A DNA stretch of 64,000 nucleotides from Escherichia phage teqskov. The translations under genes were made by a program, and so were the position numbers. Below, one piece after another: positions 4,796-55,623 of this stretch. Under the pieces are notes generated by a model. The model saw nothing but the letters and a program-made list of their open reading frames with translations. It did no database searches and was not told the origin of the DNA. The stretch lies in sequence record NC_054934.1. One strand, 5' to 3'. Positions within the stretch are counted from its first letter, which is position 1. Each line of letters begins with the position of its first letter.

Positions 4796-4825
4796 GTTTA
4801 CTTTCCTTTCTAACGATGATATGAT
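4796..4825 (+). promoter_or_regulatory. early promoter
   Basis: GTTTAC -35, 18-bp spacer, TATGAT -10; inverted repeat ATGATAGC/GCTATCAT links the -10 to the modB start codon. Confidence 0.5.
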
Positions 4826-4851
4826 AGCTTCTGAAGTATACGGAGGCTATC

Positions 4852-5475
4852 ATGATTATTAATCTTGCAGATGTTGAACAGTTATCTATAAAAGCTGAAA
4901 GCGTCGATTTTCAATATGATATGTATAAAAAGGTCTGTGAAAAATTTACTGACTTTGAACAGTCAATTCTTTGGCAATGTATGGAAGCCAAAAAGAATGA
5001 AGCTCTTCATAGGCAGTTGAATAAAATCGTTAAAAAGCATTTAACTAAATCACCTTATCAGTTATATCGTGGTATATCAAAATCAACAGAAGAACTTATT
5101 AAAGATTTACAAGTTGGAGAAGTGTTTTCAACGAACAGGGTAGATTCATTTACTACTAGTTTGCTCACAGCATGTTCTTTTTCTTACGCTGAATATTTTA
5201 CTAAAATAATACTTCGCTTAAAAACTAATAAAGCTTTTAATTATTCTGACCATATCAGCGATATTATACTTTCTTCTCCTAATACTGAGTTTAAGTACAC
5301 GTATGAAGATACTGATGGATTAGATTCAGAGCGTACTGATAACTTAATGATGATTGTGCGTGAACAGGAATGGATGATTCCAATTGGAAAGTATAGAATA
5401 ACTTCTATTTCAAAAGAAAAATTACACGATTCATTTGGAACATTTAAAGTTTATGATATTGAGGTAGTTGAATGA
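4852..5475 (+). CDS. modB: ADP-ribosyltransferase ModB
   Basis: 207 aa (T4 ModB length); ART R-S-E triad (YRG, FTTSL, EQEWMIP); position upstream of modA. Confidence 0.7.
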   Translation: MIINLADVEQLSIKAESVDFQYDMYKKVCEKFTDFEQSILWQCMEAKKNEALHRQLNKIVKKHLTKSPYQLYRGISKSTEELIKDLQVGEVFSTNRVDSFTTSLLTACSFSYAEYFTKIILRLKTNKAFNYSDHISDIILSSPNTEFKYTYEDTDGLDSERTDNLMMIVREQEWMIPIGKYRITSISKEKLHDSFGTFKVYDIEVVE

Positions 5476-6074
5476 AATACTCAGTAATGCAACTAAAAGA
5501 TTTTAAAATAAAATCAATGGATGCATCGGTGCGTGCTTCTATTCGTGAAGAATTACTTTCTGAAGGGTTTAATTTATCTGAAATTGAACTTTTAATTCAT
5601 TGTATTACTAATAAACCAGATGACCATACTTGGTTAAATGAAATAATCAAATCTCGTTTGGAACCAAACGATAAACCTCTTTGGAGAGGTGTTCCAGCTG
5701 AGACTAAACAAGTATTAAATCAAGGAATTGATATTATTACATTTGATAAAGTCGTATCAGCTTCATATGATAAAAATATAGCTCTACATTTTGCTTCTGG
5801 TTTAGAGTATAACACACAAGTTATTTTTGAATTCAAAGCTCCTATGGTATTCAATTTCCAGGAGTATGCTATAAAAGCTCTACGCTGTAAAGAATACAAT
5901 CCAAACTTTAAGTTTCCGGATAGCCATCGTTATCGTAATATGGAATTAGTTTCAGATGAACAAGAAGTAATGATACCAGCTGGAAGTGTATTTAGAATTG
6001 CAGATAGATATGAATACAAAAAGTATTCAACATACACTATCTATACTCTTGATTTTGAAGGATTTAATCTATAA
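5472..6074 (+). CDS. modA: ADP-ribosyltransferase ModA
   Basis: 200 aa (T4 ModA length); ART triad (WRG, SAS, EQEVMIP); tandem with modB. Confidence 0.7.
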   Translation: MKYSVMQLKDFKIKSMDASVRASIREELLSEGFNLSEIELLIHCITNKPDDHTWLNEIIKSRLEPNDKPLWRGVPAETKQVLNQGIDIITFDKVVSASYDKNIALHFASGLEYNTQVIFEFKAPMVFNFQEYAIKALRCKEYNPNFKFPDSHRYRNMELVSDEQEVMIPAGSVFRIADRYEYKKYSTYTIYTLDFEGFNL

Positions 6075-6130
6075 TGGAAGGACTTAGATTCATTATACCA
6101 TGAAAGTTTTAAAGCATTTTTCATAAAGTT

Positions 6131-6160
6131 GTTTACAAGTTAAAGTAAAAATGTTATAGT
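6131..6160 (+). promoter_or_regulatory. early promoter
   Basis: GTTTAC -35, 18-bp spacer, TATAGT -10. Confidence 0.5.
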
Positions 6161-6196
6161 ATAAGTAGTTAACCGTCCGTAAGATGTGAGAAAAAT

Positions 6197-6943
6197 ATGA
6201 AGCTGTCTAATAACCAAATTCGTAAAATTAAACGTCGTCTAGAGCATACCCAGGCATCTGCAAAAAGACGTTCTAAAGATTTTAACTTAGACTTCAATTA
6301 CATTAAGAACATTTTAGATCAGAAAGTTTGTGCTTACTCAGGAGAACCTTTTGATAATCGTGTTGAAGGAGAGAAATTATCATTAGAACGTTTTGATAAT
6401 AACGTTGGATACATTAAAGGGAATGTTATTGCAGTAAAGAAAAAGTATAATACATTTCGTTCTGATTATACTTTAGAAGAGTTGATTGAAAAGCGTGATT
6501 TATTTGCTTTGCGAATTGGTCGTTCATCTGCGAAAAAAGTTCATAAACTAAATTTAGATGAAAAGAAATGGGCTAAAATCAAAAAGACTTATAATCAAAT
6601 TAAAGCTATACAGAAAAAACGTGAAAACCGAATTGAACACATTTCTCAGCTTTCTAAATCAAAACAGACCTCTGACATTAAGCTAAGAATTATAGCACTT
6701 AAAGCTCGTATTGATGGTTCTCGCATAGCAGAAGGCGCTGAAGTTGTTAAACTGAACGTTCTTCTTAAAGGCTCGGATTGGAAAATTGTGAAAAAGTTGT
6801 CAGAAGCAGAAATGCAATATGATATGTGTGATAAAATTATTCAAGGTGTAGAGCGGTATCAAAACTTGTCTTTTATTGATAAACTTAAACTGAAAAGAGG
6901 ATACCCGCTAAATTGTTCAATTTTTAAACTTATCCGAGGATAA
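6197..6943 (+). CDS. Srd-position protein (248 aa) with degenerate HNH-like N-terminal motif
   Basis: Size and position (between modA and dda) match T4 srd; N-terminus CAYSGEPF...LSLERFDNNVGYIKGNVIAV resembles an HNH core lacking the catalytic His/Cys. Confidence 0.5.
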   Translation: MKLSNNQIRKIKRRLEHTQASAKRRSKDFNLDFNYIKNILDQKVCAYSGEPFDNRVEGEKLSLERFDNNVGYIKGNVIAVKKKYNTFRSDYTLEELIEKRDLFALRIGRSSAKKVHKLNLDEKKWAKIKKTYNQIKAIQKKRENRIEHISQLSKSKQTSDIKLRIIALKARIDGSRIAEGAEVVKLNVLLKGSDWKIVKKLSEAEMQYDMCDKIIQGVERYQNLSFIDKLKLKRGYPLNCSIFKLIRG

Positions 6944-6944
6944 T

Positions 6945-7256
6945 ATGGTTTATGTATATGCGATAGTTTACCGAGACAAAGACGGATTTACGGCGCCAGT
7001 TCCGCTTGATGAACATCGTCCTGCTGTATTTTTTGAATGGAATATTGCTGATAAAGTATTTACTACTCTTAAAGAGCAGTATCGATTAGCTTTAGGTAAG
7101 GGAATTCCAAGATTAGTTGAGACTCCACGCAAGTTTTGGTTTAATAAAATAGAAGTTAAACATGTTAAGCCTGACGTAGACACACAAAGATTATATCAGC
7201 GAATTTTAGATACTGGGCGTATTGTTAGTATTCCAATTGCAGGGACTTTCCGATGA
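6945..7256 (+). CDS. hypothetical protein (103 aa)
   Basis: ATG with GAGGA RBS; immediately upstream of dda. Confidence 0.5.
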   Translation: MVYVYAIVYRDKDGFTAPVPLDEHRPAVFFEWNIADKVFTTLKEQYRLALGKGIPRLVETPRKFWFNKIEVKHVKPDVDTQRLYQRILDTGRIVSIPIAGTFR

Positions 7257-8572
7257 CATTTGATGATTTGACCGAAGGCCAGAAAAATGCCTTTAACATT
7301 GTTATGAAGGCTATTAAAGAAAAGAAACATCATGTAACTATTAATGGACCTGCTGGTACCGGTAAGACTACTCTTACTAAATTCATCATTGAAGCTTTAA
7401 TATCTACGGGTGAAACTGGTATTATTTTAGCAGCTCCTACGCATGCGGCTAAAAAGATTCTTTCAAAACTATCAGGGAAAGAAGCGAGTACTATTCATAG
7501 TATTCTTAAAATTAACCCAGTAACATATGAAGAAAACGTTCTTTTTGAACAAAAAGAAGTACCAGATTTAGCTAAATGCAGGGTATTAATCTGCGACGAA
7601 GTGTCAATGTATGATAGAAAGCTATTTAAAATTCTGCTTTCAACTATCCCGCCATGGTGTACCATAATTGGAATAGGGGATAATAAGCAAATTAGACCTG
7701 TTGACCCAGGAGAAAACACTGCTTATATCAGTCCATTCTTTACACATAAAGATTTTTATCAGTGTGAACTTACTGAAGTTAAACGCAGTAATGCTCCTAT
7801 TATTGATGTAGCTACTGACGTTCGTAACGGTAAGTGGATTTATGATAAAGTTGTTGACGGGCATGGAGTACGTGGATTTACTGGTGATACCGCTTTACGC
7901 GATTTTATGGTAAATTATTTTTCAATCGTCAAATCTTTAGATGATTTGTTTGAAAATCGCGTAATGGCATTTACGAATAAATCTGTTGACAAGTTAAATA
8001 GCATTATTCGTAAAAAGATTTTTGAAACTGATAAAGATTTTATTGTCGGTGAAATTATTGTAATGCAGGAACCATTAATTAAAACATATAAAATTGATGG
8101 AAAGCCTGTATCAGAAATTATTTTTAATAACGGACAATTAGTTCGTATTATAGAAGCAGAGTATACATCAACGTTTGTTAAAGCCCGTGGTGTTCCTGGG
8201 GAATATCTAATTCGTCATTGGGATTTAACAGTAGAAACTTACGGCGATGATGAATATTATCGTGAAAAGATTAAAATAATTTCATCTGATGAAGAGCTAT
8301 ATAAGTTTAACCTATTTTTAGGTAAAACTGCAGAAACTTATAAAAATTGGAACAAAGGCGGAAAAGCTCCGTGGAGTGATTTTTGGGATGCTAAATCACA
8401 GTTTAGTAAAGTGAAAGCACTTCCTGCATCAACATTCCATAAAGCTCAGGGTATGTCTGTAGACCGTGCTTTCATTTATACGCCTTGTATTCATTATGCA
8501 GATGCTGAATTGGCCCAACAACTTCTTTATGTTGGTGTTACCCGTGGTCGTTATGATGTGTTTTATGTGTGA
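7253..8572 (+). CDS. dda: Dda DNA helicase (SF1B)
   Basis: 439 aa; Walker A GPAGTGKT, DEVSM Walker B; sequence recognised as T4 Dda. Confidence 0.92.
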   Translation: MTFDDLTEGQKNAFNIVMKAIKEKKHHVTINGPAGTGKTTLTKFIIEALISTGETGIILAAPTHAAKKILSKLSGKEASTIHSILKINPVTYEENVLFEQKEVPDLAKCRVLICDEVSMYDRKLFKILLSTIPPWCTIIGIGDNKQIRPVDPGENTAYISPFFTHKDFYQCELTEVKRSNAPIIDVATDVRNGKWIYDKVVDGHGVRGFTGDTALRDFMVNYFSIVKSLDDLFENRVMAFTNKSVDKLNSIIRKKIFETDKDFIVGEIIVMQEPLIKTYKIDGKPVSEIIFNNGQLVRIIEAEYTSTFVKARGVPGEYLIRHWDLTVETYGDDEYYREKIKIISSDEELYKFNLFLGKTAETYKNWNKGGKAPWSDFWDAKSQFSKVKALPASTFHKAQGMSVDRAFIYTPCIHYADAELAQQLLYVGVTRGRYDVFYV

Positions 8573-8578
8573 GGTTAT

Positions 8579-8839
8579 ATGATTAACATCAATTCAAAAT
8601 ATTTAAATCGTCTAATAGATGGTATAAGGAAGCATACTAATAAGCAAGATAATCTTAATGTTATGGTAACAGGAGCTGAGCTCCTTCATAAGCTTTATCT
8701 TATAAGTGATACTATATTAGCAATTAAACGAATTGAAAAACAATCATATCACAGTAATACAGATACGGTAATTACACTAGATGAAAGTGTCTGTAAATTA
8801 CTAATTAAATTTGAGGAAGCTATTCGTGGAAATAACTAA
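8579..8839 (+). CDS. hypothetical protein (86 aa)
   Basis: ATG with GAGG RBS; first of three similar-sized small ORFs. Confidence 0.45.
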   Translation: MININSKYLNRLIDGIRKHTNKQDNLNVMVTGAELLHKLYLISDTILAIKRIEKQSYHSNTDTVITLDESVCKLLIKFEEAIRGNN

Positions 8840-9989: not shown

Positions 9990-9995
9990 AAAGTT

Positions 9996-10027
9996 GTTTA
10001 CTTCCTCGGTTAGTTGTGGTATTATAA
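9996..10027 (+). promoter_or_regulatory. early promoter
   Basis: GTTTAC -35, 18-bp spacer, TGGTATTATAA -10 region. Confidence 0.55.
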
Positions 10028-10052
10028 CACCATAGCTACTGAGGATAATAAA

Positions 10053-10565
10053 ATGAAAATTTATCGTGTTGAATCATCGTTTAGCGCATTAAATGATGAT
10101 AGTGGTATAGTCAAAATTAGGCAAGAGTTATGCGTTCAATCAACTCCTTATCGTGGATTTGATTCTATGAAAACTCGAACTTGGCTAAAATTTTGCGGTA
10201 TTAATTCATCGTCATTTCATCATCATAGCGATAATTATGAAAGCCATGAAAGTATTCCTATTCCACACGATGATAAGTTATTAGTTGAAAATGCTAATGA
10301 TGTTATTAAAACTAAATGGAATAAAGATTATTCACGAATTGAAAATTATATTCCATTGTGGTTTATTGCATTATATCATTTTGCTTTCGCTAGCGAATAT
10401 GATATGATGAGATGGTTCACTCGAGAAGAGCGTGAAGACTTAAAAGAACGTGGAATGTACATTGCGATTTATGAAGTGCCAGATGACCAAGTTATCATTG
10501 GCGGACATCAAGTAATGTTCCGCAAATCGCATGCCGAATTAAAAGGCTTTATTACCTTAGATTAA
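10053..10565 (+). CDS. hypothetical early protein (170 aa), in the position of T4 motB
   Basis: ATG at 10053 with GAGGA RBS directly after early promoter; identity with MotB not verifiable. Confidence 0.5.
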   Translation: MKIYRVESSFSALNDDSGIVKIRQELCVQSTPYRGFDSMKTRTWLKFCGINSSSFHHHSDNYESHESIPIPHDDKLLVENANDVIKTKWNKDYSRIENYIPLWFIALYHFAFASEYDMMRWFTREEREDLKERGMYIAIYEVPDDQVIIGGHQVMFRKSHAELKGFITLD

Positions 10566-11079: not shown

Positions 11080-11108
11080 TTTACAAACTCTTGGGACCAG
11101 AGTATAAT
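11079..11108 (+). promoter_or_regulatory. early promoter
   Basis: GTTTAC -35 overlapping upstream stop, 18-bp spacer, TATAAT; -10 flanked by inverted repeat GGACCA/TGGTCC. Confidence 0.6.
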
Positions 11109-11152
11109 GGTCCTGCGGAGTATAAAATCTTTTTAACAAGTGAGAGATAATT

Positions 11153-12846: not shown

Positions 12847-13218
12847 ATGTTTAAAATCGGTAAGAAATATCGTATTCGCGAAGGTGAAGAACAGAAATAT
12901 CTACTTTCTGCTATTTATAGGAATGGTTCTATTAGTAATGTAATATCTACAAGCGAATTTATCGTTGAAGATATGAAAGGTCATAATGTTACAATGATTA
13001 GTACAGCATCTGGAAATGATGGAAAAATTCTTCATAGTTGTCAGAGTAATGTTCTAATTTATGATGAAGAATTTGACTTCTTCAAAGAAGTTTCCGAAGA
13101 TTTTGATTTTGAATGCACTATCACTATGAAATCTGGCGATCCTCTTTCTTTTACAGTTAAAGATGAAAGAAGCCGTTTAAGAATTATTAGTCTTCTTCAA
13201 GCCATTAAATTTAAGTGA
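12847..13218 (+). CDS. hypothetical protein (123 aa)
   Basis: ATG with RBS; no recognised motif. Confidence 0.5.
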   Translation: MFKIGKKYRIREGEEQKYLLSAIYRNGSISNVISTSEFIVEDMKGHNVTMISTASGNDGKILHSCQSNVLIYDEEFDFFKEVSEDFDFECTITMKSGDPLSFTVKDERSRLRIISLLQAIKFK

Positions 13219-13526: not shown

Positions 13527-13553
13527 ATTCCCGAAACCAAACGAGGATAAGTG

Positions 13554-15371
13554 ATGATTAAGAATGAAATTAAAATTCTGAGCGATATTGAACATATCAA
13601 AAAGCGTAGCGGCATGTATATTGGCTCTTCTGCTAATGAAATGCATGAGCGCTTTCTGTTTGGTAAATGGGAAAGTGTTCAGTATGTACCTGGTCTTGTT
13701 AAGCTTATTGATGAAATTATCGATAACTCAGTAGATGAAGGTATTCGTACTAAGTTTAAATTCGCAAATAAAATTAATGTTACTATTAAAAACAATCAAG
13801 TAACAGTTGAAGATAACGGTCGCGGTATTCCACAAGCGATGGTTAAAACACCTACCGGTGAAGAAATTCCTGGTCCTGTTGCCGCATGGACTATTCCAAA
13901 AGCAGGTGGTAACTTCGGTGATGATAAAGAACGCGTCACTGGCGGTATGAACGGTGTTGGTTCTAGTTTGACAAACATTTTTTCTGTGATGTTTGTCGGT
14001 GAAACTGGCGATGGTCAAAATAATATTGTAGTTCGTTGCTCAAATGGCATGGAAAATAAATCATGGGAAGATATTCCTGGAAAATGGAAAGGAACCCGTG
14101 TTACTTTCATTCCTGATTTTATGTCATTTGAAACTAATGAGCTGTCCCAAGTTTATCTTGACATTACATTAGATCGTCTCCAGACACTTGCTGTTGTTTA
14201 TCCTGATATTCAATTTACCTTTAATGGTAAAAAGGTTCAGGGCAATTTTAAGAAATATGCACGCCAATATGATGAGCATGCTATCGTTCAAGAACAAGAA
14301 AATTGTTCTATTGCGGTTGGTCGTTCACCGGATGGATTTCGTCAATTAACTTATGTGAATAACATCCACACTAAGAATGGTGGCCATCACATTGACTGTG
14401 TTATGGATGATATTTGTGAAGACCTTATTCCACAAATCAAACGTAAGTTCAAAATTGATGTAACTAAAGCACGTGTCAAAGAATGTTTGACTATCGTTAT
14501 GTTTGTTCGTGATATGAAAAACATGCGATTTGATTCTCAAACTAAAGAGCGTTTGACTTCTCCATTTGGTGAAATCCGTAGTCATATTCAACTTGATGCT
14601 AAAAAGATTTCACGCGCTATTCTAAATAATGAAGCAATTTTGATGCCAATTATTGAAGCAGCATTAGCTCGTAAATTGGCAGCAGAAAAAGCAGCAGAAA
14701 CTAAAGCAGCTAAAAAGGCTTCTAAAGCTAAGGTTCATAAACATATCAAAGCGAATCTTTGTGGTAAAGATGCTGATACTACACTATTCTTAACTGAGGG
14801 CGATTCTGCTATCGGATATCTTATTGATGTTCGTGATAAAGAACTTCATGGTGGTTATCCATTGCGCGGTAAAGTTCTCAACAGTTGGGGTATGTCTTAT
14901 GCAGATATGCTTAAAAACAAAGAATTATTTGATATTTGCGCAATCACTGGATTAGTTCTTGGTGAAAAAGCTGAAAACTTGAATTATCATAATATTGCTA
15001 TTATGACTGATGCTGACCATGATGGTCTAGGAAGCATTTATCCTTCTCTGCTCGGGTTTTTTAGTAATTGGCCAGAATTGTTTGAGCAAGGACGAATTCG
15101 CTTTGTCAAAACTCCTGTAATCATCGCTCAGGTCGGTAAAAAACAAGAATGGTTTTACACAGTCGCTGAATATGAGAGTGCCAAAGATGCTCTACCTAAA
15201 CATAGTATCCGTTATATTAAGGGACTTGGCTCTTTGGAAAAATCTGAATATCGTGAGATGATTCAAAATCCAGTATATGATGTTGTTAAACTTCCTGAGA
15301 ACTGGAAAGAGCTTTTTGAAATGCTCATGGGAGATAATGCTGACCTTCGTAAAGAATGGATGAGCCAGTAG
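13554..15371 (+). CDS. 39: DNA topoisomerase II large (ATPase, GyrB-like) subunit, fused gp39+gp60 form
   Basis: 605 aa uninterrupted ORF from ATG 13554; GHKL ATPase N-terminus; T4 splits this into 39 (516 aa) and 60. Confidence 0.9.
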   Translation: MIKNEIKILSDIEHIKKRSGMYIGSSANEMHERFLFGKWESVQYVPGLVKLIDEIIDNSVDEGIRTKFKFANKINVTIKNNQVTVEDNGRGIPQAMVKTPTGEEIPGPVAAWTIPKAGGNFGDDKERVTGGMNGVGSSLTNIFSVMFVGETGDGQNNIVVRCSNGMENKSWEDIPGKWKGTRVTFIPDFMSFETNELSQVYLDITLDRLQTLAVVYPDIQFTFNGKKVQGNFKKYARQYDEHAIVQEQENCSIAVGRSPDGFRQLTYVNNIHTKNGGHHIDCVMDDICEDLIPQIKRKFKIDVTKARVKECLTIVMFVRDMKNMRFDSQTKERLTSPFGEIRSHIQLDAKKISRAILNNEAILMPIIEAALARKLAAEKAAETKAAKKASKAKVHKHIKANLCGKDADTTLFLTEGDSAIGYLIDVRDKELHGGYPLRGKVLNSWGMSYADMLKNKELFDICAITGLVLGEKAENLNYHNIAIMTDADHDGLGSIYPSLLGFFSNWPELFEQGRIRFVKTPVIIAQVGKKQEWFYTVAEYESAKDALPKHSIRYIKGLGSLEKSEYREMIQNPVYDVVKLPENWKELFEMLMGDNADLRKEWMSQ

Positions 15372-20145: not shown

Positions 20146-20175
20146 GTTTACAAGACTGTTCCTCTGTGGTACTAT
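20146..20175 (+). promoter_or_regulatory. early promoter
   Basis: GTTTAC -35, 18-bp spacer, TGGTACTAT; spacer is complementary to the downstream SD (CTGTTCCTC / GAGGAACAG). Confidence 0.55.
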
Positions 20176-20203
20176 TACCCTATCAACTACGGAGGAACAG
20201 AAA

Positions 20204-20317
20204 ATGAAAAAGATTGTTAAAGCTATATGGAATGTAGTTATAATACTAACAGTTTTGTGTATATTCCCAATCGTTTTAATGATTGATGTATTAAACGTTT
20301 ACTTTGGATTTATGTGA
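20204..20317 (+). CDS. small membrane peptide (37 aa)
   Basis: ATG with GGAGGA RBS; single TM helix. Confidence 0.45.
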   Translation: MKKIVKAIWNVVIILTVLCIFPIVLMIDVLNVYFGFM

Positions 20318-35400: not shown

Positions 35401-36299
35401 TTACTATCCCCGTCAAACAATCTCCACAATTTCTCATTATCATCAAACATCAAGAAACCGTCAATCGATGTACGGCCTTCAATGGAATGAGTTCCAACTT
35501 CTTGTACTGAAGTCGTTTCATCGTATGTAGTAACAATTGTATGATAAAGTGGATTCAGTTTATCTAAATCGACAAAATTAATAATATCGCCATGATTAGC
35601 AAATCTTGGAAGTTTAACATTAATTGGTGCAGCAGAAGTAAATCTACGTACGATAAAATCATTAGATTGCGCCTGATAGAGACTTGCTGGTGTTACAATT
35701 ACCGCTTCTCTACTATAATCAGCTACATACATTTGCCACAGACGATTACTAAAAATTAAAACTAGCTGTGACTTTGGATGAGTCATTAGTACTGAACGTA
35801 CTTGTTCACCTCTAAAGTTTACAATACTTTGCACTGGAGCTACAATTAAAACTTGGTTAACTCCGGGTTTTCCTCCAATATCTTGGAGAACGATAGTATC
35901 ACCATCAATTGGAGTAGATGGTAAAGTAAATGTGATGTCATTTCCAGCTGCAGTATTAACCGAAATTGCTTCGCCAGATTTTAATTGATATGAACCAGAT
36001 GAAACCGTAATCCAGTTAGCATCTGTACGTAATGCTCTCCAGCGTCCGCTATTAAAAGCTCCTGCCGGTTTTGGAATATCATTTATAGCAGCCCAAAAGC
36101 GGTTATCATAAATGATTACAAAATCTTTTAAATATCCACGAGTTGGGTCATATTGCTGAACTGTGTTTTCTTGAATTAAGTAATCAACGTTAACACCGTC
36201 AGTTCCTACGGTACGATCAGCTAAAGCTACGTTGATTATTTTATCGCCACCTGCGTCCAGACCATCTTCTGCTCTGAACTTTCTTTTAATCTCGGCCAT
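32430..36299 (-). CDS. 34: gp34 long tail fibre proximal subunit
   Basis: 1289 aa (T4 gp34 length); internal ATETRRG...ITPKKL repeats. Confidence 0.9.
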   Translation of the reverse strand: MAEIKRKFRAEDGLDAGGDKIINVALADRTVGTDGVNVDYLIQENTVQQYDPTRGYLKDFVIIYDNRFWAAINDIPKPAGAFNSGRWRALRTDANWITVSSGSYQLKSGEAISVNTAAGNDITFTLPSTPIDGDTIVLQDIGGKPGVNQVLIVAPVQSIVNFRGEQVRSVLMTHPKSQLVLIFSNRLWQMYVADYSREAVIVTPASLYQAQSNDFIVRRFTSAAPINVKLPRFANHGDIINFVDLDKLNPLYHTIVTTYDETTSVQEVGTHSIEGRTSIDGFLMFDDNEKLWRLFDGDSKARLRIITTNSNIRPNEEVMVFGANNGTTQTIELQLPTDISIGDTVKISMNYMRKGQTVKIKAAGEDKIASSVQLLQFPKRSEYPPETKWVTVQELVFNGETNYVPVLQLAYIEDSDGKYWVVQQNVPTVERVDSLNNSTRARLGVIALATQAQANADLENSPQKELAITPETLANRTATETRRGIARIATTAQVNQDTTFSFADDLIITPKKLNERTATETRRGVAEIATQQETNTGTDDTTIITPKKLQARQGSESLSGIVTFVSTAGATPASSRELNGTNVYNKNTNNLVVSPKALDQYKATPTQQGAVILAVESEVIAGQSQEGWANAVVTPETLHKKTSTDGRIGLIEIATQSEVNTGTDYTRAVTPKTLNDRRATESLSGIAEIATQVEFDAGVDDTRISTPLKIKTRFNSTDRTSVVALSGLVESGTLWDHYTLNILEANETQRGTLRVATQVEAAAGTLDNVLITPKKLLGTKSTESQEGVIKVATQSETVTGASANTAVSPKNLKWIVQSEPTWAATTAVRGFVKTSSGSITFVGNDTVGSTQDLELYEKNSYAISPYELNRVLANYLPLKAKAADSNLLDGLDSSQFIRRDIAQTVNGSLTLTQQTNLSAPLVSSSTATFGGSVSANSTLTISNTGTATRLIFEKGPQTGTNPAQTMTIRVWGNQFGGGSDTTRSTVFEVGDETSNHFYSQRNKAGNITFSINGTVMPININASGSLNANGVATFGSSVTANGEFISKSANAFRAINGDYGFFIRNDAANTYFMLTASGDQTGGFNGLRPLAINNASGQVTIGESLIIAKGATINSGGLTVNSRIRSQGTKTSDLYTRAPTSDTVGFWSIDINDSATYNQFPGYFKMVEKTNEVTGLPYLERGEEVKSPGTLTQFGNTLDSLYQDWITYPTTPEARTTRWTRTWQKTKNSWSSFVQVFDGGNPPQPSDIGALPSDNATMGNLTIRDFLRIGNVRIVPDPVNKTVKFEWVE
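34730..34870 (-). repeat. intragenic direct repeats in gene 34
   Basis: ACGAGTTTCTGTAGCAGT recurs about 120 bp apart, encoding repeated TETRRG...ITPKKL units. Confidence 0.6.
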
Positions 36300-39595: not shown

Positions 39596-39624
39596 GGGGA
39601 CCCTAGAGGTCCCCTTTTTTTTTT
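39596..39624 (+). terminator. rho-independent terminator
   Basis: GGGGACCCTAGAGGTCCCC followed by a 10-nt T-tract. Confidence 0.85.
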
Positions 39625-40359: not shown

Positions 40360-40389
40360 TTTACAGAAGGGTAGTAGTGTGATACTATT
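40359..40389 (+). promoter_or_regulatory. early promoter
   Basis: GTTTAC -35 overlapping upstream stop, 19-bp spacer, TGTGATACTAT. Confidence 0.55.
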
Positions 40390-40413
40390 ACCCTATCAAC
40401 TAAGGAGAATAAA

Positions 40414-42252: not shown

Positions 42253-43113
42253 ATGAAACAATACCAAGATTTAATTAAAGACATTTTTGAAAATGGCTAT
42301 GAAACTGATGACCGAACAGGCACAGGAACAATTGCTTTGTTCGGTACTAAATTACGCTGGGATTTAACTAAAGGTTTTCCTGCAGTAACGACTAAGAAGC
42401 TCGCCTGGAATGCATGTATTTCTGAGTTATTGTGGTTCTTATCAGGAAGTACTAACGTAAATGATTTACGTCAACGTACTCATGGATCTTTAATTTCAGG
42501 AAAAACAATTTGGGATGAAAACTACGAAAACCAGGCCAAAGACTTAGGTTATCATAGCGGTGAACTTGGTCCAATTTACGGAAAACAGTGGCGTGATTTT
42601 GGTGGTGTAGATCAAATTGTAGAAGTTGTTAATCGTATTAAAACATTTCCCAACGATAGGCGTCAAATTGTGTCGGCATGGAATCCAGCTGAACTCAAGC
42701 AGATGGCATTACCTCCTTGTCATATGTTCTATCAGTTTAATGTGCGTAACGGATACCTTGACCTCCAATGGTATCAACGTTCGGTAGATGTTTTCCTCGG
42801 TCTTCCATTTAACATCGCGAGTTATGCTGCTCTTTTGCATATTGTTGCTGACATGTGTGAACTAGTTCCGGGCGATTTGGTATTCTCGGGTGGTAATACA
42901 CACATTTATTCTAACCATATTGAGCAATGCAAAGAGATATTAAATAGAACTCCTATGGATCTATGCAAACTCAGTATTAATTGGCCTAATGGATTCAGTC
43001 AATGCGATACTGAAACTCAAATGTATTGGTTAACTGAATATATGACAGCACGGGATTTCGTTCTCAAAGATTATCAGTCCCACGGTGTATTGAAAGGAAA
43101 GATGGCGGTGTAA
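42253..43113 (+). CDS. td: thymidylate synthase (uninterrupted)
   Basis: 286 aa continuous ORF; TS active-site region (PPCH...); no intron. Confidence 0.93.
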   Translation: MKQYQDLIKDIFENGYETDDRTGTGTIALFGTKLRWDLTKGFPAVTTKKLAWNACISELLWFLSGSTNVNDLRQRTHGSLISGKTIWDENYENQAKDLGYHSGELGPIYGKQWRDFGGVDQIVEVVNRIKTFPNDRRQIVSAWNPAELKQMALPPCHMFYQFNVRNGYLDLQWYQRSVDVFLGLPFNIASYAALLHIVADMCELVPGDLVFSGGNTHIYSNHIEQCKEILNRTPMDLCKLSINWPNGFSQCDTETQMYWLTEYMTARDFVLKDYQSHGVLKGKMAV

Positions 43114-45986: not shown

Positions 45987-47156
45987 ATGAGCACAGTTTT
46001 TAATACAAATCCAGTTGATGTTTTAAAAGAACCTATGTTCTTCGGTTCAGGTCTTGGTATTGCGCGTTATGATATTCAACGCCATAAAGTTTTTGAAGAT
46101 TTAACCGAAAAGCAATTATCATTTTTCTGGCGTCCTGAAGAAGTAAACTTGATGATGGATGCTGCACAATTTAACAAGCTTCCTCAGTATCAGCAAGATA
46201 TTTTTACTAATAACCTGAAGTATCAATCACTTCTAGATAGCATTCAGGGTCGTGCACCGTCTGCTGTACTTATGTCATTAATTTCAGATCCAAGCCTTGA
46301 TACATGGGTTGCTACATGGACTTTTAGCGAAACTATTCACAGTCGTTCATATACTCATATCATGCGAAATCTTTATACTGATCCATCAAAGGTATTTGAT
46401 GAGATTGTATTAGATAAAGCTATCATGAAACGTGCTGAATCTATTGGTCGTTATTATGATGACGTTCTAGTTAAGACTCGTGAATATCAGAATGCGGTTG
46501 AAGATTATGAAGGAATTTTATCAGAAGGATTTCGTAAAGAAGAGCTAGGCAAAGTTGTTGAATGTACTAAACGAGCACTAATGAAATCTCTTTACCTCTG
46601 CCTGCACGTAATCAACGCATTGGAAGCTATTCGTTTTTATGTATCTTTCGCATGTACCTTTAACTTCCATAAGAACATGGAAATCATGGAAGGTAATGCC
46701 AAGATTATGAAGTTCATTGCACGTGATGAGCAGCTTCACCTTAAAGGCACCCAATATATTATTCGTCAACTTCAACTTGGCACTGATGGTGATGAATGGG
46801 TTAAAATTGCTCAAGAGTGTGAACAAGAAGCAGTTGATATTTTCATGGAAGTTAACCGTCAAGAAAAAGACTGGGCAGTTCATTTATTTAAAGATGGCGA
46901 TGTTCCTGGATTAAATACAAATAGCATGTGGAGCTTTATTGATTACTTAACTGTATCTCGTATGAAACAGTGTGGTCTTCCATGCCCAATTACTGATGCT
47001 CCGGTTAAACATCCGTATCCTTGGATTCGTGAATATCTTAATTCTGATAATGTTCAATCTGCACCGCAAGAAGTAGAACTGTCATCTTATCTTGTAGCAC
47101 AGATTGATAATGACGTTGATGATAAAGTTATGATGAGTTTTAAAAAATATTTTTAA
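45987..47156 (+). CDS. nrdB: ribonucleotide reductase small subunit NrdB (uninterrupted)
   Basis: 389 aa continuous ORF; no intron or I-TevIII-type ORF. Confidence 0.92.
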   Translation: MSTVFNTNPVDVLKEPMFFGSGLGIARYDIQRHKVFEDLTEKQLSFFWRPEEVNLMMDAAQFNKLPQYQQDIFTNNLKYQSLLDSIQGRAPSAVLMSLISDPSLDTWVATWTFSETIHSRSYTHIMRNLYTDPSKVFDEIVLDKAIMKRAESIGRYYDDVLVKTREYQNAVEDYEGILSEGFRKEELGKVVECTKRALMKSLYLCLHVINALEAIRFYVSFACTFNFHKNMEIMEGNAKIMKFIARDEQLHLKGTQYIIRQLQLGTDGDEWVKIAQECEQEAVDIFMEVNRQEKDWAVHLFKDGDVPGLNTNSMWSFIDYLTVSRMKQCGLPCPITDAPVKHPYPWIREYLNSDNVQSAPQEVELSSYLVAQIDNDVDDKVMMSFKKYF

Positions 47157-48771: not shown

Positions 48772-48774
48772 GCT

Positions 48775-48804
48775 GTTTACAAGTCCCTCGTGTTGTGTTA
48801 CAGT
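48775..48804 (+). promoter_or_regulatory. early promoter
   Basis: GTTTAC -35, 18-bp spacer, TACAGT; spacer complementary to the alc SD region. Confidence 0.5.
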
Positions 48805-48835
48805 AGTCTTACTGACATAACATGAGGACTTTATG

Positions 48836-49339
48836 ATGGATTTACAGCTTATTACTACTGAAATGGTCGTTGAAGCATACGGTGATACTACAGATGGGAT
48901 TTCTGTATTTAAAGGAAATCGTCGAGTTGGATATATCACCGATCTTAAGAAAGATTTAGCTAAGCAAGTCAAGCGGAAAACGACCATTAAAGAATATCGA
49001 AATCGTCGTCTTGAGCAAGCCCGTGATATGCTTCCTGATGCAGTTGAGGAGATGAAAGTCTTTTTAGAAAATCAGCTTGCGAAATATGATTGTGATGTGT
49101 TCATTAATCAGACTCAACCTAATGTTCATATTAACAACTGTAAATGCTATATCATCGTTAATCCTTTGACGGGAAAACATCGTCTTGGAATTAGTAATCC
49201 AAATCGTAGCGCATCAGATATGGCAGAAGATGTTGAGGCATGCTTTAAAATTTCTAAATCTCCTGCTGAACATCATATTTTAATTAACGGTCTTTCTCAA
49301 GACGATATTATAGAGGTTATTAAAACTTTATGCAATTAA
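48836..49339 (+). CDS. alc: Alc (host transcription unfolding/termination) protein
   Basis: 167 aa from second ATG (T4 Alc length); position after rnlA. Confidence 0.6.
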   Translation: MDLQLITTEMVVEAYGDTTDGISVFKGNRRVGYITDLKKDLAKQVKRKTTIKEYRNRRLEQARDMLPDAVEEMKVFLENQLAKYDCDVFINQTQPNVHINNCKCYIIVNPLTGKHRLGISNPNRSASDMAEDVEACFKISKSPAEHHILINGLSQDDIIEVIKTLCN

Positions 49340-50203: not shown

Positions 50204-51428
<1,225 letters not shown>

Positions 51429-51429
<1 letters not shown>

Positions 51430-51626
51430 TGGCGTGGCATCATGAAACTTGGTCTATTGTTATTGTAAATAGTGGTTTAGTCGGTACTAGTAATGGGCAA
51501 TTTTGTGTATTCACTAGTGAAATCAGAGCATGGGAGGAATGTCTTAAATTAAGAGAAAAGAATCCCGATGTTGAACTAACAGTAAAGAAAACTAAACTGC
51601 CTTTACCATGGAAAACTTATGAATAA
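51429..51626 (+). CDS. hypothetical protein (65 aa)
   Basis: ATG at 51429 overlapping pseT stop. Confidence 0.45.
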
Positions 51627-51819
51627 CCTAGAAAAGATTTATCGTCTTTGTGATAAAATTGAAAAAGAAAAGAAATATCTATTTTGTCTATGGCCTATTG
51701 TTAACGGAAGATTAGGCTTAGATGTTCTTGATTATGAAACAGAAGACAAAGTAGATGGTTCAACTTTTGATAATGCGTTGGATGTTATTGATTGGCTTGA
51801 AGAAAATTATGTGAGGTAA
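51619..51819 (+). CDS. hypothetical protein (66 aa)
   Basis: ATG overlapping previous gene end. Confidence 0.45.
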   Translation: MNNLEKIYRLCDKIEKEKKYLFCLWPIVNGRLGLDVLDYETEDKVDGSTFDNALDVIDWLEENYVR

Positions 51820-51821
51820 AT

Positions 51822-52097
51822 ATGTTTCCGACTTATTCTAAAATCGTAGAAGTAGTGTTTAGTCAAATTATCGCTAATAATATGTTTGAAAAGCTTGATA
51901 ACGCAGCCGAGCTTCGAATTCATGCTCAAGTGACTCATGTATTGAATACTTTGCTTCCAGACCAAGTGGATTCTATTGCAATTACGTTGTATCCAGGTTC
52001 AGCGCATATCATTGTTGTATTCGGTCTTGATGCTGAGTTAGTTATCAAAGGCGACATTCGTTTTGAATCGCAGACAGCAGAATTCAAAGCAATTTAA
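51822..52097 (+). CDS. hypothetical protein (91 aa)
   Basis: ATG with GAGG RBS. Confidence 0.5.
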   Translation: MFPTYSKIVEVVFSQIIANNMFEKLDNAAELRIHAQVTHVLNTLLPDQVDSIAITLYPGSAHIIVVFGLDAELVIKGDIRFESQTAEFKAI

Positions 52098-52099
52098 TA

Positions 52100-52129
52100 G
52101 TTTACTTTACGGTAGAGTTGTGATATTAT
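52100..52129 (+). promoter_or_regulatory. early promoter
   Basis: GTTTAC -35, 18-bp spacer, TATTAT; -10 flanked by inverted repeat GGTAGAG/CTCTACC. Confidence 0.55.
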
Positions 52130-52159
52130 AGCTCTACCAAAACAAACGAGGAAATTGAA

Positions 52160-52687
52160 ATGAGCGAATGGTTTGAAGAAGATAAGGTTTATCGCTTTAA
52201 AGCTGGATATAAAGATATTTTTAATGAAACTTGCGGGGCTAATAAACGAATTGCCCAGTTTATTGGGGAAAATTCATTTAAAGTAAAAATTGACCCTGCA
52301 AAGAATGTTATTAGCATTAAACGCGAAATTGATGACTGCTGGTATAAAGCTGTTGACGTAATGGGCGAATCCTATAAAGTTAGCCCGTTATTTTCAATTG
52401 CTTATATGTTAGAATATTCTTTTTTCGAAGAAGTTCAAAAAGATGATTCTGTCAGTAAATTTGAAATTAAAGCTGATAAAGAAATTAAGTGGAAAGTAGT
52501 AGGTATTACTGGTTGTATGTTTTATATCTATGCTCAAACTGATACGAAAGAAGAAGCTAAAAAGAAAGCTCTAGAATATCTTGAAGAGTATGAAGAAGGT
52601 CCGGTAATGATTACTCAAGATGCTGAATTAGTTTCTGTCAAATTAGTTAAAAACGTTGAAAGTAAGGAGCTGGGATCAACATGCTAA
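52160..52687 (+). CDS. hypothetical protein (175 aa)
   Basis: ATG with GAGGAAA RBS. Confidence 0.55.
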   Translation: MSEWFEEDKVYRFKAGYKDIFNETCGANKRIAQFIGENSFKVKIDPAKNVISIKREIDDCWYKAVDVMGESYKVSPLFSIAYMLEYSFFEEVQKDDSVSKFEIKADKEIKWKVVGITGCMFYIYAQTDTKEEAKKKALEYLEEYEEGPVMITQDAELVSVKLVKNVESKELGSTC

Positions 52688-52917
52688 GTGAAAAACCAAT
52701 TACTGTTAAAGAATTCCAAGAAAAAGTTAAACTATTTGCGCAGGAATTAGTAAATAGGGTTTCTGAACGATTTCCTGAAACATCGGTTCGTGTTATTACC
52801 GAAACTCCTCGTTCAGTATTAGTAATTGTGAATCCAGGTGATGGCGATCAAATATCGCATCTTAAATTAGATTTTGATGGATTAGTTGAAGCACAAAGGG
52901 TGTATGGCGTACTATGA
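52681..52917 (+). CDS. hypothetical protein (78 aa)
   Basis: ATG overlapping previous gene end. Confidence 0.5.
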   Translation: MLSEKPITVKEFQEKVKLFAQELVNRVSERFPETSVRVITETPRSVLVIVNPGDGDQISHLKLDFDGLVEAQRVYGVL

Positions 52918-53252
52918 TGAATTTAACTGATATAATTGATAATTGTCTTGAAAATGATACTGGCGATCATAGAGCGCTTGACTCTGAAACAGCAAAGTTC
53001 ATTAAAATAACTTTAATGAATGATACTCTGGTGAATAGTATTCATCCTTCTGTGTATGATGCTATTATTGTGACGAAGTATCCGGTTGAGCTTCACAAAA
53101 AGATGACTGGTGCAGTTTTTATTGATAAGAAAAACCGCTTTAAAGATGGGCAGAATATAATTAGTTCTGTTATTAAAAGTATAACTAAACTTCGTCACGA
53201 AATTTATCGTGTTGAAACTGCTAAATCTACTTATCTGGTGATTATGAAATGA
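52914..53252 (+). CDS. hypothetical protein (112 aa)
   Basis: ATGA overlap. Confidence 0.5.
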   Translation: MMNLTDIIDNCLENDTGDHRALDSETAKFIKITLMNDTLVNSIHPSVYDAIIVTKYPVELHKKMTGAVFIDKKNRFKDGQNIISSVIKSITKLRHEIYRVETAKSTYLVIMK

Positions 53253-53830
53253 AAGCGAGTACAGTACTTCAAATTGCATATTTAGTATCGCAGGAATCAA
53301 AATGTTGCTCCTGGAAGGTAGGAGCAGTAATTGAAAAGAATGGACGTATTATTTCTACTGGGTATAATGGTTCACCCGCAGGTGGAGTAAATTGCTGTGA
53401 TTATGCTGCTGAGCAAGGTTGGTTGCTGAATAAGCCTAAACATACTATCATTCAAGGTCATAAGCCTGAATGTGTATCATTTGGTTCAACTGATCGCTTT
53501 GTCTTGGCGAAAGAACACCGTAGTGCTCACTCTGAATGGTCGTCTAAAAATGAAATTCATGCTGAACTAAATGCAATTTTGTTTGCTGCACGAAATGGTT
53601 CTTCTATTGAAGGTGCTACTATGTATGTAACACTTTCTCCTTGTCCAGATTGTGCAAAAGCGATAGCTCAATCTGGTATTAAAAAGCTAGTTTATTGTGA
53701 AACATACGATAAAAATAAACCTGGCTGGGATGATATTCTGCGAAATGCAGGTATTGAAGTGTTTAATGTTCCTAAGAAAAACTTGAATAAGTTAAACTGG
53801 GAAAATATCAACGAATTCTGTGGTGAATAA
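53249..53830 (+). CDS. cd: dCMP deaminase
   Basis: 193 aa (T4 Cd length); cytidine/dCMP deaminase zinc motifs HAE...PCPDC. Confidence 0.88.
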   Translation: MKASTVLQIAYLVSQESKCCSWKVGAVIEKNGRIISTGYNGSPAGGVNCCDYAAEQGWLLNKPKHTIIQGHKPECVSFGSTDRFVLAKEHRSAHSEWSSKNEIHAELNAILFAARNGSSIEGATMYVTLSPCPDCAKAIAQSGIKKLVYCETYDKNKPGWDDILRNAGIEVFNVPKKNLNKLNWENINEFCGE

Positions 53831-54066
53831 TGAAATTTCGTTTGGTACAACTTACAGCAATTAGTTCTTATTCTAATGAGAACATCTCGTTTGCTGTAGA
53901 GTATAAGAAATATTTTTTCTCTAAATGGAAACAGTATTATAAAACTGATTGGACTAGTATTGATAGACCATATAGTTGGAAATCTGATTTAGAAAAATGC
54001 CAAAAATTACTTTCCACCCTTAAAGAACGTGGAACAACTCATATTAAAACTGTGATAGGTAAATAA
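53830..54066 (+). CDS. hypothetical protein (78 aa)
   Basis: TAATG overlap with cd. Confidence 0.5.
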   Translation: MKFRLVQLTAISSYSNENISFAVEYKKYFFSKWKQYYKTDWTSIDRPYSWKSDLEKCQKLLSTLKERGTTHIKTVIGK

Positions 54067-54375
54067 ATGAAACTGACAACTGAGCAGAAAGTAGCAATTC
54101 GCGAAATTTTGAAAACTAAATTGTCCATGGGTGTTTCAAACGTAGTTTTTGAAAAGTCTGATGGTACTATTCGTACTATGAAAGGTACTCGTGATGCAGA
54201 CTTTATGCCAACCATGCAAACTGGCAAATTGACTGAATCTACTCGGAAAGAATCTACTGACATGATTCCAGTATTTGATGTTGAACTTAGTGCATGGAGA
54301 GGTTTTTCTATTGATAAATTGATTTCCGTTAATGGTATGAAAGTTGAGCATTTGCTTCAATTTATTGGTAAATAA
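54067..54375 (+). CDS. hypothetical protein (102 aa)
   Basis: ATG directly after previous stop. Confidence 0.5.
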   Translation: MKLTTEQKVAIREILKTKLSMGVSNVVFEKSDGTIRTMKGTRDADFMPTMQTGKLTESTRKESTDMIPVFDVELSAWRGFSIDKLISVNGMKVEHLLQFIGK

Positions 54376-54431
54376 ATGCTTTAAGAATTATTTGTTATTA
54401 TTAATTCATCTGTTAACAAAAAGGAAAAACG

Positions 54432-54767
54432 ATGTCTGAAGTACAACAGCTACCAATTCGTGCTGTCGGTGAATATGTTATTTTAGTTTCTGAACCTGCA
54501 CAAGCTGGTGATGAAGAAGTTACAGAATCAGGACTTATTATCGGTAAACGTGTTCAAGGTGAAGTTCCTGAACTGTGTGTAGTTCACTCTGTTGGTCCTG
54601 ATGTTCCTGAAGGTTTCTGCGAAGTTGGTGATTTGACTTCTCTTCCAGTTGGTCAAATTCGAAATGTTCCGCATCCTTTTGTAGCTCTGGGTCTTAAGCA
54701 GCCAAAAGAAATTAAACAAAAATTCGTTACTTGTCACTATAAAGCTATTCCGTGTCTTTATAAGTGA
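54432..54767 (+). CDS. 31: gp31 co-chaperonin (GroES-like)
   Basis: 111 aa; [23 protein letters not shown]... recognised as T4 gp31. Confidence 0.88.
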
Positions 54768-54775
54768 TATAAATA
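54768..54775 (+). promoter_or_regulatory. late promoter (TATAAATA) upstream of rIII
   Basis: TATAAATA directly after gp31 stop, followed by about 120-nt leader. Confidence 0.55.
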
Positions 54776-54893
54776 ATAATATGAATTGAGTTTCAATTCT
54801 ATGTGGTAGTCTACAACTGAGAGATCTGTCGAAAGAAGATGAAATTCAGAAGAACGTGACTACCGAGTTTTAATCTCTAACGAGAATTTTTAA

Positions 54894-55142
54894 ATGATTA
54901 AACAATTACAACACGCTCTTGAACTGCAACGAAACGCATGGAATAATGGTCACGAAAACTATGGCGCATCTATTGATGTTGAAGCCGAAGCTCTTGAAAT
55001 CCTGCGTTATTTCAAACATCTGAATCCTGCTCAAACTGCATTAGCTGCTGAGCTTCAGGAAAAAGATGAACTTAAATATGCTAAGCCTCTGGCTTCTGCC
55101 GCACGAAAAGCAGTTCGTCACTTTGTGGTAACACTGAAGTAA
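54894..55142 (+). CDS. rIII: rIII lysis-inhibition accessory protein
   Basis: 82 aa (T4 RIII length); position after gene 31. Confidence 0.8.
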   Translation: MIKQLQHALELQRNAWNNGHENYGASIDVEAEALEILRYFKHLNPAQTALAAELQEKDELKYAKPLASAARKAVRHFVVTLK

Positions 55143-55336
55143 TTTATTGGAGAGTCACTGCCTTAGTGTGAAGTTAAAACGAGGAGCCGTCGAACTTTGT
55201 TTTACGGTGTACCTCTTGAATGTTGACGAGGTTTATGGTTATCCTGTCGGTAAATATTCAAAACCTAAGTACCCCTTGAGGGCTTGCGCAGGCAATGCCA
55301 ATAAGTCCTGCATTTTCATTTAAAAGAGAATTTATA

Positions 55337-55513
55337 ATGGCAAAACAAGCTAAAGCAAAGAAAGCAGTTGAAAAGAAAGTTGGTGATTCTAAACGCGCTG
55401 GTTACAAGCGTGGGTCGAACTCTCGTATCAATCAAACTGTTGAGAAGATCATGCGCCGAGCACGTGCGGTTCTTCGAGATGATGCTTCTCGTTTTGGTAA
55501 GCAGAAAGCATAA
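55337..55513 (+). CDS. small basic protein (58 aa)
   Basis: ATG at 55337 (alternative ATG 55295); Lys/Arg-rich; followed by strong terminator. Confidence 0.5.
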   Translation: MAKQAKAKKAVEKKVGDSKRAGYKRGSNSRINQTVEKIMRRARAVLRDDASRFGKQKA

Positions 55514-55517
55514 GTTA

Positions 55518-55547
55518 AGGACTCCTTCGGGAGTCCTTTTTTATTTT
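55518..55547 (+). terminator. rho-independent terminator
   Basis: AGGACTCCTTCGGGAGTCCT followed by TTTTTTATTTT; same hairpin as at 2660. Confidence 0.85.
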
Positions 55548-55566
55548 CCAAAGATTGCACAAAGTT

Positions 55567-55599
55567 GTTTACAGTATGGCTCCTTTGTGATAGTATTAT
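55567..55599 (+). promoter_or_regulatory. early promoter
   Basis: GTTTAC -35, 18-bp spacer, TAGTATTAT; spacer CTCCTTTG complementary to downstream SD CAAAGGAG. Confidence 0.6.
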
Positions 55600-55623
55600 C
55601 TTACACAAACAAAGGAGAATAAA

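Follow-up and report, generated by a model that had tools for sequence, protein, structure and literature searches.

Early promoters of the window and their embedded hairpins

We analyzed a 64,000-nucleotide stretch of Escherichia phage teqskov (sequence record NC_054934.1; hereafter, the window) for inverted repeats that are embedded in early promoters and complementary to the first downstream gene's ribosome-binding site. At the promoters of modB, motB.2, an ndd.4-like small open reading frame (ORF), alc, and, more weakly, gene 30.8, RNA reading through the promoter from upstream folded into a hairpin whose 5' arm is encoded in the promoter and whose 3' arm covers the Shine-Dalgarno sequence (SD), the start codon, or both. 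This predicted masking element is an early-promoter version of a logic known from T4 late promoters. The feature itself is real and does not arise by chance, and part of it is deeply conserved.

Megablast groups the window with Tequatrovirus; many T2/T4-like coliphages match it at 98% identity, and phage T2 matches it at 100% over 4700-4900. Relative to the standard T4 map the window is reverse-complemented, which puts its early genes, and all of its promoters and hairpins described below, on the + strand. The gene order begins with gene 61, mrh, modB (start codon at 4852), modA, srd, dda, dexA, and motB.2 (10053) and continues with motB (11153), 39, rIIA/B, denB, ndd, 52, and motA. The tail-fibre genes 34-38 occupy the - strand at 26-36 kb and are followed by rnh (36404), 32, frd, td, nrdA/B, rnlA, and alc (48833) and then by pseT, cd, 31, 30.8 (55624), 30.7 (56063), and 30.

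Early promoters were searched for on the + strand with the T-even consensus GTTTAC-N17/18-TAnnnT. Sites with one -35 mismatch, nearly all spurious-looking, were excluded, and real promoters with other -35 hexamers may therefore be missed. The search returned 18 sites, 17 of which have a start codon with an SD 19-38 nt downstream; these 17 share the layout of the PeSL cassettes of T4-type phages, namely a strong sigma-70-type early promoter, an AT-rich upstream tract, and an SD and ATG at the 3' end. The predicted transcription start (+1) was taken as the seventh base after the -10. Applied to the T4 cd.2 promoter, this rule gave 133295, matching the label Pe133295 in the T4 record; promoter listings are absent from the T4 records NC_000866 and AF158101. 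The translation initiation region (TIR) was defined as -13 to +4, and ddG as the cost of opening it in read-through RNA (60 nt upstream) minus the cost in proximal RNA, that is, RNA beginning at the predicted +1.

Hairpins over the ribosome-binding sites of five early genes

The modB promoter (4796-4825), identified by consensus match, combines the -35 GTTTAC at 4796-4801 with an extended -10, TGaTATGAT, at 4817-4825, and its start is predicted at about 4832-4835; the same promoter is present in T4 at 13186. The read-through hairpin (4815-4860) has a 5' arm at 4815-4833 that holds the -10, a loop at 4834-4840, and a 3' arm at 4841-4860 that spans the SD GGAGG (4842-4846) and the ATG (4852-4854). 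In its 19-bp stem, which has one bulge, the -10 region is paired to the SD, the AUG, and the codons that come first in the gene, around a core complementarity of ATGATAGC (4821-4828) with GCTATCAT (4847-4854). The fold reached -21.2 kcal/mol (z -4.6), with a ddG of +12.1. Among metagenomic Tequatrovirus copies of this leader, two stem positions are polymorphic, with a G.U to A-U change at 4815 and a G-C to G.U change at 4841, and both keep the pairing.

At motB.2 (promoter and hairpin, 9996-10045), the -35 at 9996-10001 and the -10 TATTAT at 10020-10025 predict a start at 10032. The 5' arm (10003-10020) pairs with a 3' arm (10029-10045) that spans the SD GAGGA (10041-10045) ahead of the ATG at 10053, and the fold (-23.7 kcal/mol, z -5.5; ddG +12.4) adds a fifth site to the four named in an earlier note on this DNA. 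The ndd.4-like small ORF (ATG at 20204) has its promoter and hairpin at 20146-20200, with the -35 at 20146-20151, the -10 TACTAT at 20170-20175, and a predicted start at 20182. Here a 15-bp stem joins 20156-20170 to 20186-20200, the 3' arm spanning the SD GGAGG (20191-20195), and the core complementarity is CTGTTCCTC (20156-20164) with GAGGAACAG (20192-20200). This site gave the largest ddG in the window (+17.3; fold -23.2 kcal/mol, z -4.4), and one pair that is U.G in T4 is C-G in the window.

The alc promoter and hairpin occupy 48775-48839 (-35 at 48775-48780; -10 TACAGT at 48799-48804; predicted start at 48811). Its stem is interrupted, with arms at 48781-48798 and 48815-48831, the latter spanning the SD GAGGA (48824-48828), and an outer helix of 48773-48777 with 48835-48839 flanks the ATG at 48833. 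The fold was the most stable of the five (-28.6 kcal/mol, z -4.7; ddG +14.2), and the alc cassette recurs in T4 at alt.-3. Gene 30.8 carries a weak hairpin (promoter and hairpin, 55567-55617; -35 at 55567-55572; -10 TAGTAT at 55591-55596; predicted start at 55603), in which CTCCTTTG(T) at 55580-55588 pairs with (A)CAAAGGAG at 55609-55617 in a 9-bp AU-rich stem over the SD, upstream of the ATG at 55624. Its fold reached -15.1 kcal/mol (z -2.9), with a ddG of 4.8-9 depending on context.

The four inverted repeats that the earlier note had reported, at modB, 20146, alc, and 30.8, are thus all present in the sequence, with the modB coordinates 1 nt off. The complementarities stood as described, but on folding the structures extend further, as in the 19-bp modB stem over both SD and AUG. 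Each of the five sites is a consensus T-even early promoter in which the 5' arm follows the -35 (GTTTAC) and ends no later than the predicted +1, so that proximal transcripts would lack it, as had been proposed. Read-through RNAs folded to between -15 and -29 kcal/mol (z -2.9 to -5.5), compared with 0 to -1.8 kcal/mol for RNAs with the proximal start, and the structures are in this sense stable. Pairing of the SD and/or start codon in read-through RNA was predicted by folding at modB, motB.2, 20146, and alc, where opening the TIR cost 14-18 kcal/mol, and was weaker at 55567. The sequestration claimed in the earlier note therefore agrees with the computed extra opening cost, which was 12-17 kcal/mol at four sites and about 5 kcal/mol at 30.8.

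The masks as a set are not chance complementarity

Across the 17 promoters, the four masked sites had ddG values of 12-17, followed by motB (5.8), 30.8 (4.8), and mrh.2 (3.7), with the other ten at about 0. These values were stable to 40-150 nt of upstream and 35-100 nt of downstream context and to a shift of the start site by 3 nt either way. As a null, the upstream 60 nt of each promoter were joined to the leader of every other promoter (n = 272 chimeras). A perfect stem of at least 8 bp between promoter and TIR was present in 3 of the 17 native combinations and in 1 of the 272 mismatched ones, and a ddG of at least 10 kcal/mol was reached by 4 of 17 native promoters vs. 1 of 272 chimeras (permutation p = 1e-5). 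As a second control, we cut 76 + strand genes without an early promoter of their own at a mock start at -22; none of the 76 reached a ddG of 8 (maximum, 6.5) compared with 4 of the 17 promoter-bearing genes (Fisher p = 8e-4). Strong masks are hence confined to genes whose own proximal promoter would allow them to be bypassed.

Chance complementarity might be expected in AT-rich sequence in which a pyrimidine-rich spacer precedes a purine-rich SD. In favor of such an account, the anti-SD 4-mers CTCC and CCTC were no commoner in spacers (7 of 35) than in control windows upstream of the -35 (9 of 35; 3.7% genome-wide), a comparison that is not informative about enrichment, and the 55567 site taken by itself is weak, its ddG of 4.8 ranking in the top 5-10% of chimera values, so that chance is possible for that site alone. 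Against it stand the chimera and permutation tests, the shuffles, the promoterless-gene control, and the conservation across genera described below. Chance is excluded for the set of masks and is highly improbable as a general explanation.

Conservation of the modB and motB.2 masks

The modB mask was present in 10 of 10 orthologous leaders folded, with ddG values of 7.4-18 kcal/mol and ModB proteins down to 35% identity. These leaders came from Tequatrovirus, Mosigvirus (RB69), Dhakavirus (JS10), Karamvirus (CW742), Gelderlandvirus (LG358), Jiaodavirus (JD18), and three IMG/VR contigs. In at least six genera of Tevenvirinae the mask is thus retained, its changes being compensatory, and its arm pairs covary by lineage (AUGAUAGC/GCUAUCAU, AUGAUGACC/GGUCAUCAU, AUGACCUCU/GGAGGUCAU, and CCAUGAUAU/AUAUUAUGG). 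In an alignment of 13 mutually related sequences, which was guided by the structural model and hence fitted to it, 96.6% of the pair cells were paired, and two pairs were double-changed in 11 cells. None of 500 shuffles matched this alignment, and slid controls gave 16-56%.

The spacer-SD pairing of motB.2 was found in every orthologue tested from three lineages (ddG 7-20), although the arm pairs of the T4 type (CCUCGGUUAGUUGUGGU/ACCAUAGCUACUGAGG), JS98 type (CUCCUCAUG/CAUGAGGAG), and RB69 type (CUCCUCUGGUU/AACCAGAGGAG) are mutually unrelated. Because the arm registers differ among the three lineages, MAFFT columns could not be scored for covariation, and conservation was judged by folding each sequence. 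The alc and 30.8 masks showed no conservation outside Tequatrovirus, and that of 30.8 is lost in diverged orthologues. Most of what the scan of IMG/VR and metagenomes yielded was near-identical Tequatrovirus copies, and the more diverse sequences were obtained with alignment-based queries and from single phage-collection records.

Extent of masking in T4 and RB69

The ddG distribution of the 34 usable early promoters of T4 was bimodal, with 10 at 8.5 or more, one at 5.3, and 23 at 2.8 or less, and 3% of T4 chimeras reached a ddG of 8. The ten masked genes are ndd.4, alc, nrdC.8, regB, alt.-3, modB, 30.8, motB.2, e.8, and denV. Among 23 RB69 promoters, only motB.2 (16.7) and modB (14.1) carried strong masks, and alc (2.7) and alt.-3 (2.1) were unmasked. 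The masked share is thus roughly one-quarter to one-third of Tequatrovirus early promoters and is smaller in Mosigvirus. The word "systematic," used in the earlier note, overstated an arrangement found at 4-5 of 17 promoters in the window, 10 of 34 in T4, and, in strong form, 2 of 23 in RB69.

Repeats around the -10 only and cassette duplication

Inverted repeats that bracket only the -10, which had been noted at three promoters, are real there and were identified at a fourth. At the motB promoter (11079), 11087-11099 pairs with 11108-11121 (-16.8 kcal/mol, z -2.6), ending about 20 nt short of the SD. The 12-bp repeat of promoter 52100 lies at 52111-52138 (-16.3 kcal/mol, z -4.2; TIR ddG 1.4). 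The gene 30.7 promoter has a repeat at 55997-56046 with a core of 56003-56018 paired with 56023-56037 (-19.2 kcal/mol, z -6.8; TIR ddG 0.5), and its GGTACAGG/CCTGTACC pairing is kept in RB69. The additional case, a 12-bp repeat at 40369-40395 in promoter 40359, forms the minimum-energy structure of the read-through RNA and has a TIR ddG of 0.25.

In T4, a half-swap duplex test placed 14 of 38 promoters in the tail of the null at 1.3% or below, and -10-centered inverted repeats are pervasive. About half of the 14 reach the SD or AUG, and about half stop before it. The T4 -10-only class comprises ipI, ipII, ipIII, mobD.2, dmd, cd.2, 30.7, and motB. Hairpins of this class, in the window and in T4, have loops of 3-8 nt and leave the ribosome site open; they depart from randomness as much as the masking class does and likewise favor the sense strand in folding.

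Whole promoter-hairpin-SD cassettes are duplicated in front of unrelated T4 genes, as with alc (136336) and alt.-3 (123093) and with ndd.4 (166807) and nrdC.8 (53943), and on one IMG/VR contig a modB-type cassette stands in front of modB and again in front of a motB.2-like gene. These duplications fit cassette shuffling. The 52100 promoter and its -10 hairpin are nearly identical to those of T4 cd.2 (window 52100-52687 vs. T4 133331-133031), but the ORF behind them has 175 aa in the window compared with an annotated 76 aa in T4; possibly the gene was replaced while the promoter cassette ahead of it was conserved.

Strand preference and separation from terminators

Among the 25 most structured T4 promoter regions, sense RNA folded better than antisense by 4.5 kcal/mol where composition predicts 0.8, an excess of 3.7 kcal/mol (Wilcoxon p = 8e-6). 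The stems hold G.U pairs, and natural variation replaces G-C by G.U or G.U by A-U. The sense bias, the G.U pairs, and the variants that keep pairing together point to sense read-through RNA, more than to a DNA cruciform or antisense RNA, as the place of the structure.

A terminator scan detected no U-run after the embedded hairpins, the tails of which are A-rich (AAUAAAAUG), and flagged only the modB hairpin, weakly, on a ATTATTAA tail. The embedded hairpins thus do not have the GC-rich stem followed by a U-run of intrinsic terminators. Canonical intrinsic terminators were identified at 2659-2680, 39596-39614, and 55517-55538, 15-35 nt upstream of the -35 at promoters 2694, 39649, and 55567, respectively; all three have a GC stem, a GNRA-like loop, and a T-run, and two have the same stem, AAGGACTCCTTCGGGAGTCCTT. 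The masks resemble them in being stable intergenic hairpins and differ in having no U-run, in their AU/GU-rich stems, and in a 3' arm that is the ribosome-binding site. Over the whole window, Rfam gave no family match at the gathering threshold.

Other features of the window

A perfect promoter-like site, GTTTAC-N18-TACAAT, was found at 35817-35846 (+ strand), antisense within gene 34 and about 590 nt upstream of rnh. It is kept in T4 (151291) and has no ORF start after it, and it may be a chance occurrence or a real early promoter directed at rnh. Gene 39 (13551-15371) is a single ORF of 606 aa, as in RB69, which indicates that the T4 gene 60 split and its translational bypass are absent from the window phage. 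Similarly, td (42253-43113, 286 aa) and nrdB (45987-47156, 389 aa) are both uninterrupted, so that this phage lacks the T4 introns carrying I-TevI and I-TevIII.

Interpretation and alternatives

Structures, stability, non-randomness, strand, conservation, and restriction to promoter-bearing leaders were all computed, and from them we infer a translational block and its biological purpose, with start sites placed by consensus. In the reading we favor and consider rather probable, the hairpins would form only on RNA that runs through an early promoter from upstream, where they would lock the ribosome site, and proximal RNA would remain open. The 5' arm would be supplied by the promoter core, either the spacer or, at modB, the -10 itself, and the 3' arm by the SD and/or AUG of the first downstream gene. 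Proximal RNA, starting in the loop or the 3' arm, would have no 5' arm and a free ribosome-binding site, whereas in read-through RNA the site would be held in a 9-19 bp stem. On this model, modB, motB.2, the ndd.4-like gene, and alc would be translated only from their own immediate-early promoters, as in T4 would regB, denV, nrdC.8, alt.-3, e.8, and 30.8, and synthesis would stop when early promoters are shut off despite continued transcription from upstream. Early promoters fall silent 2-3 min into infection, and exposed GGAG in early SDs is cut by RegB (PMC3014915); together, the shut-off and this cleavage suggest that synthesis from masked genes would be confined to the immediate-early burst. 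Consistent with this, both ModB and RegB are early proteins (PMC9697503).

Several points weigh against this reading. The masking and the start sites rest on folding and on predicted rather than mapped 5' ends, and in leaders as short as 18-22 nt, contact with the SD is nearly unavoidable for any 3' arm that follows the +1. Ribosomes terminating on the upstream ORF halt short of the 5' arm, by 10 nt at alc and 14 nt at motB.2, and might partly open it, which would give coupling rather than silencing. Masks occur in a subset of promoters, and those of alc and 30.8 are missing from RB69 and other lineages. Hairpins confined to the -10 are about equally common, so the repeats may have a more general role of which TIR coverage is a side effect. 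Finally, because alc/alt.-3 and ndd.4/nrdC.8 are duplicated cassettes, the masked cases are not all independent.

The hairpins could instead be attenuators or insulators, with stem-loops that stop or slow polymerase arriving from upstream and so separate transcription units, TIR coverage being incidental. In phi1/RB49, PeSL stem-loops often lie between the -35 and -10 or over the -10, and one of them cut lacZ expression like a strong terminator (PMC2839356); the -10-only hairpins of the window and the weak terminator-like score of the modB hairpin are in keeping with this. We nevertheless regard it as an unlikely explanation of the masks, since the embedded hairpins have no U-tract, genuine T-run terminators stand separately just upstream of 2694, 39649, and 55567, and a 3' arm that tracks the SD or AUG through sequence turnover at modB and motB.2 would be left unexplained. 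A role in RNA stability or processing, in which the hairpin shields read-through RNA from RNase E, from RegB cleavage at GGAG, or, once the RNA is processed, from 3' exonucleases, or else hides a C/U-rich segment from Rho, seems unlikely to account for the masks. It draws on the cleavage of early mRNA SDs by RegB (PMC3014915), on the presence of GGAG in the masked SDs of modB, 20146, and 30.8 in the window and of regB and denV in T4, and on the sense-strand location of the structures. However, motB.2 and alc are masked and yet have GAGG without GGAG, and the conserved modB core pairs the AUG and not the GGAG. Pairing of the SD for protection would in any case still block ribosomes, so that this role adds to translational masking and does not replace it.

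The remaining alternative places the feature in DNA, as a cruciform or protein site that tunes the promoter, or treats it as a recombination by-product of mobile cassettes, in either case without RNA function. Cassettes are indeed duplicated and shuffled (T4 alc/alt.-3 and ndd.4/nrdC.8, and modB/motB.2-like on one IMG/VR contig), and PeSLs have been proposed as recombination sites (PMC4122927). Sense folds nevertheless beat antisense folds after correction for composition, the G.U pairs of the stems would count as mismatches at the DNA level, RNA pairing is kept in the variants, and the arms change compensatorily between genera; we judge this alternative quite unlikely. Translational masking of read-through RNA thus remains our preferred reading, and overall the interpretation given in the earlier note is partly supported.

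Relation to known systems and implications

In T4 e, soc, 49, and I-TevI, a hairpin over the SD or AUG forms in transcripts from far upstream, and an internal late promoter provides translatable RNA, which delays translation (PMC3014915; PMC2988022); the same logic has been proven for e and I-TevI (PMC3014915). The earlier note had called the mechanism established for a few T4 genes; these precedents bear it out, but all of them involve late promoters and none an early one. The window masks share with this group, which also includes I-TevII/III, segB, and Aeh1 mobE, a promoter whose position would leave the 5' arm out of any RNA begun there, and their hairpins are comparable in size and stability. 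They differ in that the internal promoter of the known cases is late (gp55) or middle, whereas the masked promoters of the window are sigma-70 early promoters of the GTTTAC-N17/18-TAnnnT type and not late (TATAAATA) or middle ones, and in that the 5' arm is written into the promoter spacer or -10. The predicted timing would also be opposite, the first minutes only as against a delay until late.

The roles ascribed to the PeSL cassettes of T4-type phages (Arbiol 2010, Comeau 2014) are those of terminator or attenuator and of recombination cassette (PMC2839356; PMC4122927), and the main text of PMC2839356 does not use the words translation, ribosome, or sequester. The window cassettes resemble them in the AT-rich tract, strong early promoter, stem-loop, SD, and ATG as a repeated, shuffled unit, with a stem-loop physically associated with the promoter that in phi1/RB49 often lies between the -35 and -10 or over the -10; cassette duplication is likewise found in T4. 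In contrast, the PST/T4 stem-loops just upstream of the promoter correspond to the three true terminators identified above and not to the embedded repeats; these lack a U-tract, and their pairing partner is the SD or AUG. No description of TIR masks at early promoters was found in the full-text literature, a search outside which the older T4 literature falls, so that a prior mention is possible. Valerie et al. in 1986 reportedly pointed to possible stem-loops before ipIII, ipII, denV, and orf61.9.

A broader reading, which we put forward as tentative and rather doubtful, is that Tevenvirinae may use free early-promoter sequence (the spacer and the -10 flank) for anti-SD or anti-AUG arms as a conserved design principle, for which modB and motB.2 provide the cross-genus cases. 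Untranslated read-through RNA would then be exposed to Rho and decay, and, if so, the same element would insulate transcription units without a terminator and would restrict dose-sensitive takeover proteins (ModB, Alc, and RegB) to the first minutes of infection. For the five sites in the window and the ten in T4, natural compensatory variants can serve as controls, and in phage engineering, moving or replacing an early promoter may silence or unmask the gene behind it. Although early gene expression in T4 is textbook material, recent transcriptome and proteome work has described an unexplained decoupling of mRNA and protein timing and called for study of SD-level control (PMC9697503). If masking operates as proposed, it would help to explain how immediate-early protein synthesis is shut off while the genes are still transcribed from upstream, and it would give an added function to promoter stem-loops so far seen as terminators or recombination sites.

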